The position numbers were made by a program. Below are positions 6,001 through 9,000 of a stretch of DNA of 42,575 nt, in pieces. Source of the stretch: Enterobacteria phage phiP27; the sequence record NC_003356.1. One strand, written 5' to 3'. Positions within the stretch are counted from its first letter, which is position 1. Every line of letters starts with the position of its first letter.

Positions 6001-9000
6001 CCTCAGTTACGAACTTTGTTTTATGGTAACTAAGGTATCAAGGTGTGGCAAGTGATTTCTGATACTTTGGTTTCTTTTTGTGTTTTGAGTCTGGTCAGAA
6101 AATATCCCACCTGGCATCAACTACAACACCTACTATTTCGCAATCATTGTCCATTTCTATGATTGGATATTGTGGATTAAGGGGCTTTAGAAACGCCTTT
6201 CCCATTTCAGAAATATATTTTTTGAATGTTGCTTCATTGGTGGATTTTTTTCTGGCGATGACGTAACACCCTGAAAAAACTTCTTTATCTGGGTTGACAA
6301 GGATCGACATTCCTTCAGGAAATGTTATTCCTACGGGCGAAGTCATTGAGTCTCCGTGCACTTCCAGCCAGAACCCCCTCTCACCAGCGTATTTTACAGA
6401 ATGCCTCCAGTTATCCTGATCATACATGTTGTAGTCATCACCAGCAGTTGCGAATAATCCTGCCTGAACCCAGTTAATTACAGGGTAAGAGTGTGCAGTG
6501 TCTCTCTGTGGGCAGCTCTTAACATTATTTTCCCAATGCTTATCTTTTTCATCTCCGCTCTGAAGCCACTGCGGTGAACACTGCAGTGCTGCTGCGACTT
6601 TAAAAAGGGTGTCACCGTTGAAACTTTTTGTAAGGCCTTGCTCGGCTTTACTGATTGCAACTCTGGTGACCCCTGCTTTTTTAGCCAACGCATCTTGCGT
6701 TAACCCAGCTTTTTGTCGTGCGTTGATGAGGCGTTCACCTAAAGATTTCATTTTTCTTCTCCTTTCATGGCTGTTGATACTAAAGTAACAGAATCTCTTG
6801 ATACTTTGGATTCTCGCGTTTAACATTCTTGGATAACAGAGTATCCGGTGTGAGACTAAAGAATGACCCTTTATGAAATATTAAAAACTCAATTTAAAAC
6901 CAATGCCGCTATTGGCCGCAGGTTCCCAAAGAAAGGAAAGCCTCGTGGCAGTCAAGGTGTTGGAAAGTGGAAAACGAGAGGTGTTCCAGAGGACGTAGCT
7001 ATTCTCTGCCATCTGGATCCAAGTATCCCGTATATCCATCCTGATTTAGCGCACACAGAAGAGGGGCAAGGTAAGCAATCGGAGGTGTGATATGTCACAG
7101 TGCTTAGCGATGCTTCAGAAACTTAATCAGCGTGTTAAGGCTGGGAAGAATTTCTGCGGGAGTTTTGATAACCGGAACAATCCGCCTGTCTTCATAGAGC
7201 TCACTAGCTTTCAGTGCGTTAAAAAAGTTATCTACGGCTTGTTGGTAACTTCGTGCTTGTCTGCTGCTCAGGTGAGGGCGCAGTCTTCTGAAATCGTCTC
7301 TGGATATATGTGGCATATCCCGTTTTCCGTCTCGGCAACCCTCGCGGAAGGCGTCAAGGATCAGGAACAATTCATCAGCGACGGCATTGAACTCTTTCCG
7401 CTTATCTCGATTTTTGGCAAGCCAGTGTCCGAGCCAGGCGCCAAGTCCAAAAGCACTAACCGTCCAGATGAAGGTAACAAGGCGCGGGTTGGTATTGAAC
7501 AGAAGAACAAACTCACTCCAGATGATTCCCATAATTTCTGGCGACTCCTTTTTGTTCAGGTAGCGGCATTTCTTGTTGCATTTCCTGTTGGTGCTTATTT
7601 CAGCATGTGGGCAAATCTTCGCAATGACTGGCGTAAGCATATCCAGAAAGGAAGACGCCTGAAAGTACCCGTACTGGCTATGTTCTCCATCACAGGCATC
7701 AGCGATCGCATTAAACCTCGATCTTGGCAGATATGGGAACGGAAGCATTGGTTTCAGGATATGCGGATATGCCATGGGATCGAGGCTGCTTATAGGGATG
7801 CATGGCTCTGGAAAAAGCGCGTAACTGAGAAGTGCTGAACCGTGATCCCAATAATTTATCCGTAAGGAGGTATCAGTGAACACCGCAATTTTTAACGATA
7901 AAGCATCCATGACCAGCGTTGAGATCGCAGAGTTGGTGGGTAGTCAGCACTCAGATGTTAAACGTAGTATCGAACGCCTGGTTGCTAAAAACATCATCCG
8001 GAAACCGCCAATGGCTGTTTCCGAGAAAATCAATAACTTAGGTTTTAAAGTTCAATATGAGCATTACCTGTTTGAAGGAGAACAAGGTAAGCGCGACAGC
8101 ATCATTGTCGTCGCACAGCTCTGCCCTGGATTCACTGCTCGCTTGGTAGATCGCTGGCGCGAACTGGAAGAACAGATCCGTAAGCCAATGAGCGAAATCG
8201 AAATGGTTGCTGCGATGGCTCTTGAAGCCGTTCGCCAGCAGAAACGGATCACTCAGGTGGAAGAAAAAGTCAGCCATGTTGCCGAAACAGTCGAGCAAAT
8301 CAAAAAGGGCACCATTCGTGAGGGCTATGCCGGATATCGCCAACTGAAAGCGAAAACCGGTTTGTCAGATGATAAATGCCGCAATCTGGTGAACGCTTAT
8401 CAAATTCCTACAGACACCCATGAGTTCATGACGCCGGACGGATTGTCATCACGTCGCGCAATTGTTGCTGTGGAACCGTTTATGGCTGCTTTTTATCGGG
8501 TTATGGAGGAAGCAGAACCGCGAGGGACTCGCTGGTATCACCCGAAAATGGGGTTGTTTCAGGTTATTGGTTGGCAGAAATAAGAAAGGCCGGCAGAGAA
8601 AACCGGCCAGTCGGGTTTATCGTCGGAGATATTACGTGAAAAACAATATCAAAGTTTTCGATTTTAAATCAAGCACTGGTGAATTGTTGTCATCAGTTCG
8701 TAGTGTGGTCATTGATTCAACACCATGGTTTTTTGCCGTGGATATATGTAACGCGCTGGGGCTGACAAATACTGCTATCTCCCTTCAGTCCATCGATGAT
8801 GAAGATAAAACCGAATATAAGGATTACTTAGGTTCGGGACGTAAGCCTTTGCTGGTCAATGAATCCGGGCTCTATGCGCTGATTATCAAAAGTCGAAAAA
8901 AACAGGCAAGACGTTTTAAACGGTGGATTACATCGGAGGTAATTCCGTCAATTCGTAAAACGGGGAATTACTGTCTTACCACAATGACATCCCTACCAGA

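Follow-up and report, generated by a model that had tools for sequence, protein, structure and literature searches.

A probable nested antisense gene pair in the early region of Enterobacteria phage phiP27

Reading frames at the locus

In the early (immunity) region of Enterobacteria phage phiP27 (NC_003356.1), the same DNA contains two long open reading frames (ORFs), one on each strand. The window was the whole stretch of 42,575 nucleotides that was analysed, and all positions refer to it. A preliminary description left it undecided whether one of the two frames was a shadow of the other or both formed a genuine antisense gene pair. The present analysis favoured a pair, but with a minus gene that comprises only 7104-7532; the rest of the open minus frame is a shadow. 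The minus ORF is presumably phiP27 gene L13, as the source name 'L13' on the Kosakonia homologue P0011 suggests. The features of the locus, with the Shine-Dalgarno sequences (SD) and the evidence from nonsynonymous to synonymous proportions (pN/pS), are the following.

6863..7090, plus strand: cro-like ORF of 75 amino acids (aa), first gene of the rightward early operon
7081..7085, plus strand: SD of the plus ORF, GGAGG, 6 nt before ATG 7092, read from the sequence
7092..7838, plus strand: plus ORF, 248 codons, WP_136759491.1, with the whole minus gene inside
7092..7532, plus strand: leader of the plus ORF, codons 1-147, antisense to L13, stop-free
7533..7838, plus strand: conserved module of the plus ORF, from plus-frame pN/pS and the codon-position profile
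7104..7532, minus strand: minus gene, 142 aa, short form of 'L13', from the codon-position profile, pN/pS, family, and fold
7545..7550, minus strand: SD of the minus gene, AAGGAG, 12 nt before ATG 7532
7533..7910, minus strand: shadow 5' extension of the minus ORF, from stops in diverged lineages and pN/pS
7876..8583, plus strand: Rha-family regulator, next gene of the early operon, from Pfam Phage_pRha, PHROG 63, and the Prokaryotic Genome Annotation Pipeline (PGAP)

The preliminary description had placed the plus ORF 1 nt past the cro stop behind a strong SD, and these coordinates hold: ATG 7092 lies 1 nt past the TGA of the cro-like ORF (7088-7090), and GGAGG is found at 7081-7085. The antisense ORF at 7104-7910 (-) was likewise confirmed to be open for 268 codons, as was the AAGGAG 12 nt before ATG 7532, at 7550-7545. 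Start signals are present for both ORFs. The codons of the two strands are exactly in register, with position 2 opposite position 2 and position 1 opposite position 3. Therefore, stops in the minus frame correspond to TTA, CTA, and TCA in the plus frame. The overlap of 7092-7838 (+) with 7104-7532 (-) is 429 bp, and both ORFs are intact.

The existing annotations keep different parts of this locus. PGAP calls the plus ORF only, from ATG 7110 (WP_136759491.1), in five complete Escherichia coli genomes with this DNA. A minus form of 223 aa has been deposited (P0001; UniProt Q8W646 in BFVD), and it is 100% identical over 142 residues. The NCBI records of Yersinia hibernica, Kosakonia, and Enterobacter bugandensis list both strands.

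Selection on the minus gene and the plus module

The selection on each strand was investigated by comparing homologous loci. Nei-Gojobori proportions were obtained for 15 lineages with the type-A tail of the plus ORF, which is described below. In the overlap 7104-7532, pN/pS was 0.53 in the minus frame (pS 0.72, saturated) vs. 0.93 in the plus frame. When five diverged loci were aligned by codon, the most variable position across 7092-7530 was plus position 1, which is minus position 3. Minus codon position 3 was also the most variable along the entire minus gene in 21 sequences. Conservation at synonymous sites had been proposed as a check. The synonymous sites of the minus gene were saturated over codons 36-142 (pS 0.74), where the plus-frame pN/pS was 0.95; synonymous variability was mildly lower in about the first 15 minus codons (0.33-0.40 vs. 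about 0.55 elsewhere). Purifying selection on amino acids was not found in both frames of the overlap, the plus-frame value of 0.93 coming from a test with low power in this frame. Nearly all changes that are synonymous in the minus frame are nonsynonymous in the plus frame, so tests of plus-frame constraint are weak.

A profile search (E ≤ 1e-3) placed the minus protein in a family with 161 members of 131-150 aa from Enterobacterales, which it fits in full-length profile similarity, size, and architecture. Its N-terminal hydrophobic helix (7419-7484) precedes the motif RKEFNAVAD (7374-7400), and the C-terminal domain is helical. Within the family motif, N49 is invariant, and R45, K46, E47, F48, and D53 are nearly invariant. 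AlphaFold modelled the 142-aa product with a mean predicted local distance difference test score (pLDDT) of 85.6; in this model, the N-terminal hydrophobic helix leads into a long helix, followed by a small helical bundle. This fits the transmembrane helix and amphipathic helices that had been read from the sequence earlier. The ATG, the SD, and the stop after ...HR are conserved. In the SD region, AAAAGGAG is kept in most type-A lineages and AAGGAG in part of the type-B lineages; the same bases encode the ...LL of the plus hydrophobic helix. These results suggested that the minus gene at 7104-7532 is, with near certainty, real.

The membrane exclusion protein of the lysogen that the preliminary description gave as an example is a speculative assignment. 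Both products, the standalone relatives, and the C-terminal module of the plus ORF gave nothing significant against Pfam, PHROGs, NCBIfam, and PADLOC, and the minus protein matched none of the defence or superinfection-exclusion families described in these collections. The fold search with the minus model returned nothing from the PDB at E ≤ 1e-3 and only the identical Q8W646 from BFVD. A single-sequence protein search with the 268-aa ORF recovered only the identical protein. The first scan of genome contigs gave no match, and tblastn with the minus protein and a 58-aa module against cultured phages gave either no match or one unannotated match.

The distant members of the family are standalone prophage genes, located beside terminase genes or between an antirepressor and tail genes. 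These standalone relatives lack the first ~10 residues of the minus protein. Two relatives outside the cro context have long antisense ORFs. At L041:2357-2887, a Nitrospira metagenome-assembled genome (MAG) contig, the relative lies beside a panB-like gene and has a 176-aa antisense ORF with no stops inside the gene. The distant standalone relative at L028:2857-3321 has an antisense ORF of 154 aa. Chance may account for these ORFs, or the subfamily may be younger than the arrangement.

The upstream part of the open minus frame behaved differently from the minus gene. Minus-frame stops were present 9-12 codons upstream of ATG 7532 in L003, L005, and L009, three of the four diverged lineages that were compared first. 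In the unique region 7533-7838, pN/pS was 0.92 in the minus frame vs. 0.41 in the plus frame. On this comparison, the extension 7533-7910 (-) is a shadow, and it takes in the start of the deposited 223-aa form.

The plus strand carries its own coding signature downstream of the minus gene. Plus codon position 3 was the most variable across 7630-7838 in the five diverged loci. The module has a hydrophobic helix at 7533-7610 (NFWRLLFVQVAAFLVAFPVGAYFSMW), followed by a basic Trp-rich domain at 7659-7811 (LKVPVL...WQIWERKHWFQDM...AYRDAWLW). Its tail occurs in two types. Type A (KVPVL..WQIWEQRxWFxDM..AYRDxWxW) is the variant in this window, and type B (ISPRILAKRKRW...PRKTFCQWLWF) is found in Providencia, Morganella, and related lineages (L031, L036, L037, L051, L058, and L076). 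The type-B tail had a pN/pS of 0.33 in the plus frame vs. 0.87 in the antisense frame. Full-length homologues of the plus ORF were found at 38-62% identity, and the representative protein library contained 23 relatives. Homologues support both strands, not one alone as the refuting condition of the preliminary description would require. Standalone type-A modules of 58-59 aa lie between ninG and Q in lambdoid prophages (hhalign probability 97%); those at L090:3001-3180 and L091:3001-3177 matched no family. No start codon is conserved between 7400 and 7600, ahead of the module, in the plus alignment of the nested lineages. The plus ORF had no match in Pfam and did not qualify as the CII-type lysogeny regulator, with a helix-turn-helix or CP76/YdaT domain, that would be expected between cro and the replication genes. 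Related loci have a separate Phage_CP76 or YdaT gene before or after the antisense pair.

There is little doubt that the plus module is real. Judged from these substitution patterns, the last ~110 codons of the plus ORF are the only ones under protein-level selection. The first ~135 evolve as the antisense of the minus gene, though they stay open far more than chance would allow. The preliminary description found the codon choices of the plus ORF similar to those of neighbouring genes; in the overlap, the plus frame has no coding signature.

A natural variant without the leader was found at L094:1129-1500. The gene order is cro, then a 112/123-aa module protein, then cII. The 112-aa protein has 56% identity to plus residues 139-247. 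L13 and the leader are absent and the module is kept, a state that is either a deletion or ancestral. A remnant of the minus gene is left (AAGGAG-N12-ATG, MHILWCQFITHG, stop), with the SD, the ATG, and ~9 codons. The plus segment ELTPDD-HKFW, which lies opposite the first minus codons, is retained. Since L094 has the module without the leader, the ~135-residue leader is dispensable for the module.

The open plus frame and its surroundings

The preliminary description had called so long an antisense shadow uncommon. Within this genome alone, that argument proved weak. TTA, CTA, and TCA make up 2.5% of the codons elsewhere in the window, and from this background a run of 243 codons would be open with a probability of ~0.002 and one of 142 codons with a probability of ~0.03. 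Antisense-open runs of 224, 231, and 256 codons occur in three other genes of the window. The double ORF is thus only weakly beyond chance within the window, being unusual and not unique. The signal beyond chance comes from the comparison among homologues.

The other long runs were recorded as well. Those of 224 and 231 codons belong to the genes at 24251-25492 and 26134-27357. An in-register antisense ORF of 229 aa at 37043-37732 (-) lies within a 360-aa ORF at 36977-38059 (+) that has no TTA, CTA, or TCA there. Such runs elsewhere in the window are probably shadows in genes that are sparing in these three codons.

Homologous loci were collected at the DNA level via motifs of the minus protein, independently of gene calls and of the plus ORF. 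All 23 unique members of the subfamily had 0 in-register antisense stops. There was no TTA or CTA among 371 Leu codons and no TCA among 178 Ser codons, while the background in flanking genes was 17.6% of Leu codons for TTA plus CTA and 18.2% of Ser codons for TCA. The antisense ORFs of these members were 182-295 codons long, and at least 215 in all except the Nitrospira MAG locus L041. The members came from Escherichia, Yersinia, Kosakonia, Providencia, Morganella, Enterobacter, and Phytobacter, at 37-75% identity, and formed 12 clusters at a synonymous difference >0.4. The probability of an open frame was 0.003-0.024 per lineage, and the joint probability ranged from 1e-16 (distinct column-codon states) to 1e-25 (12 clusters). 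The remaining four frames of the same DNA contained 4.7-13.3 stops on average, and six distant standalone relatives had 1-7 in-register antisense stops each. A further lineage, L095 (Enterobacter bugandensis), has a 140-aa minus gene within a called antisense ORF of 215 aa.

Two other causes of this pattern were considered. Codon bias was rejected, as the minus gene makes frequent use of other rare codons (AGA 73, AGG 41, and ATA 28). Ascertainment bias was rejected because the loci had been gathered by minus-protein motifs at the DNA level. In the shadow-ORF test, plus 7092-7532 did not behave as a shadow, having no stops in any homologue; minus 7533-7910 did. By this comparative evidence, selection keeps the plus frame free of stops over 7092-7532.

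One sequence of the L019-like lineage, P0137 from a Logan assembly, has a 153-aa call on the plus ORF with a frame shift after ...PGERP. Either the copy is frameshifted or the assembly is wrong here, and the shift would disrupt both genes.

An ATG was found near the 3' end of the minus gene in every lineage examined, from 6 nt inside to 126 nt beyond it and mostly 6-18 nt beyond. An SD-like element precedes this ATG by 5-9 nt in most of them, and the ATG usually stands right behind a cro-like or YdaT-like ORF. The N-terminal length of the plus ORF is variable, with no N-terminal motif conserved across lineages. The AlphaFold model of the plus ORF was unusable, with a pLDDT of 37 overall and <50 for residues 1-147. 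The ~135-codon leader is probably a spacer and not a domain.

The cro-like ORF diverges from a LexA/S24-type repressor gene at 6095-6826. It matches PHROG 4749 (2e-47), where the function is unnamed, and in related loci the ORF in the cro slot has P22_Cro or YdaS Pfam domains. Downstream, a 332-aa ORF at 8462-9460 (+), listed from TTG, shares ~120 nt with the 3' end of the Rha gene; its true start probably lies further into the frame. Related E. coli prophages have other genes behind the first Rha gene. Window positions 14139-20526 match AJ249351.2 (the phiP27 stx2e region with tRNA genes) at 100%. An Rfam scan of positions 6000-9000 gave no match.

Interpretation and comparison with known systems

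The locus is probably a nested antisense pair in the early (immunity) region of phiP27, a Stx2e prophage, with the plus leader acting as a translated spacer. As far as comparative data can tell, the 429 bp of overlap are very probably translated in both directions, and translation of the plus frame through the overlap is by itself very likely. Ribosomes that start beside cro would translate across the antisense of the minus gene. The sequence of the leader would be dictated by the minus gene, and selection would purge TTA, CTA, and TCA so that ribosomes of the pR/cro transcript can cross. The read-through would produce the C-terminal module, which is without a start codon of its own. It would also keep the early transcript translated and so avoid Rho polarity or decay over 430 nt. 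The minus gene would be used while CI shuts pR, in the lysogen or during establishment; infection or induction would bring the plus ORF into use. The two genes would exclude each other through convergent transcription and complementary mRNAs. That the frame is open only for the passage of ribosomes across a backwards lysogeny-side gene, with the 429 bp serving as a mutually exclusive life-cycle switch, is a tentative proposal that falls somewhat short of an even chance. In this view, the pair may have arisen by reciprocal overprinting: minus residues ~1-10 are missing in standalone relatives and lie antisense to the plus segment kept in L094.

Several points weigh against the nested pair with a translated spacer. 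The translation of either strand is deduced from evolution only. A scan of C/G composition along the plus strand showed no rut-like C>G bias, and because of this the anti-polarity role is a conjecture. The promoter/terminator scan found no sigma-70-like promoter for the minus gene upstream of 7532, its counts there being equal to those of shuffled sequence; the conserved blocks upstream of the minus gene, inspected by hand, contained no convincing -10/-35 pair. The 12 nt between the minus SD and the ATG exceed the optimal distance. The minus hydrophobic helix is moderate, with no 19-aa window having a mean Kyte-Doolittle hydropathy >1.6. PGAP, the 223-aa annotation, and other gene callers are mutually inconsistent. 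Finally, the leader may have a loosely constrained function.

This last point leads to the strongest alternative, true dual coding, in which the ~135-residue leader would be a functional domain with loose sequence needs, such as a disordered or periplasmic one. Stop avoidance and the start signals fit it equally well, and the reduced synonymous variability at the start of the minus gene and the ELTPDD-HKFW segment kept in L094 speak for it. However, plus-frame pN/pS is close to one over minus codons 36-142, exactly where minus synonymous sites are saturated. The low pLDDT of the leader, its variable N-terminal length, and its lack of a conserved motif are further difficulties, and L094 manages without a leader altogether. 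Dual coding is considered unlikely. Another reading is that plus 7092-7532 is an untranslated shadow and that the real genes are the minus gene and a short plus gene started internally. The overlap indeed has no plus-frame coding signature, other genes of this genome also show long antisense-open runs, and one gene caller divided the L030 region in this way. It is nevertheless very improbable: the stop avoidance is specific to this frame and recurs in at least 12 saturated lineages (P ≤ 1e-16), an ATG, in most lineages with an SD-like element, is placed near the minus 3' end, the standalone relatives do have the stops, and an internal start conserved between 7400 and 7600 is lacking.

The annotations themselves represent two further alternatives. 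In one, the long minus ORF is the gene, either with all 268 codons or as the 223-aa form. The frame is open in this genome and the 223-aa form is deposited, but the stops ahead of ATG 7532 in diverged lineages, the near-neutral minus-frame pN/pS over 7533-7838, and the family length of 131-150 aa leave it extremely improbable. In the other, which is the PGAP view, the plus ORF is the sole gene and the minus ORF its shadow. PGAP calls the plus ORF alone in the five E. coli genomes, and full-length plus-ORF homologues exist. Nevertheless, the coding signature of 7104-7532 is on the minus strand, the 161 relatives of the minus protein include standalone genes without an antisense ORF, and the minus product has a confident fold and a conserved ATG, SD, and stop. 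The chance that this view is correct is negligible.

No paper on this locus was found in the literature search, the coverage of which did not extend to the phiP27 genome paper. In lambdoid immunity regions, pR and pRE are convergent, and accessory genes such as lambda rexAB, sieB, and P22 sieB are expressed in the lysogen. The phiP27 locus resembles these in having a leftward element in the cI sense to the right of cro, opposing the early rightward transcript, with a small gene that lies in the immunity region and probably encodes a membrane protein. It differs in that the minus protein has no sequence or fold relation to named exclusion or defence proteins in the collections searched, the leftward element is a protein gene nested in an early ORF that is predicted to be translated, and no promoter was identified.

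Shadow ORFs have the same frame relation, with stops only at TTA, CTA, and TCA, and minus 7533-7910 is of this kind. They decay in diverged homologues; the plus frame 7092-7532 does not.

Long antisense overlapping genes are rare and contested in bacteria and phages, mainly since most candidates are young and without comparative support. The evolutionary signal here is unusually clean and has built-in controls in the standalone relatives with stops and the leaderless natural variant. Here, selection for an open frame can be told apart from selection for an amino acid sequence. It also illustrates a pipeline error by design: PGAP leaves out a real gene, while in the 223-aa form the enclosing ORF is missing and the embedded one is drawn too long. 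The locus offers a small, tractable Stx-prophage system for studying antisense-gene translation, transcription-translation coupling, and the exclusivity of lysis and lysogeny.

The long antisense overlapping genes olg1/tle3 and olg2/PA1383 of Pseudomonas aeruginosa (PMC8850804) and those of enterohaemorrhagic E. coli (EHEC) O157:H7 (PMC9927249, PMC5960689; review PMC7457138) are the closest known cases. They are described as taxonomically restricted, novel ORFs in older 'mother' genes, with support from Ribo-seq or mass spectrometry (PMC8850804). As in both species, a long ORF in phiP27 lies antisense to a protein gene, depletion of stops in the alternative frame is the evidence, and annotation keeps only one of the two. 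Unlike in both, it is the embedded gene of phiP27 that is constrained, as a member of an established family, and the enclosing ORF lacks amino acid constraint in the overlap. The stop-free state here spans several genera with saturated synonymous divergence. The phiP27 pair would thus be a case in which the enclosing ORF is selected solely for openness in the overlap, the embedded gene is constrained, and this state is conserved across genera.

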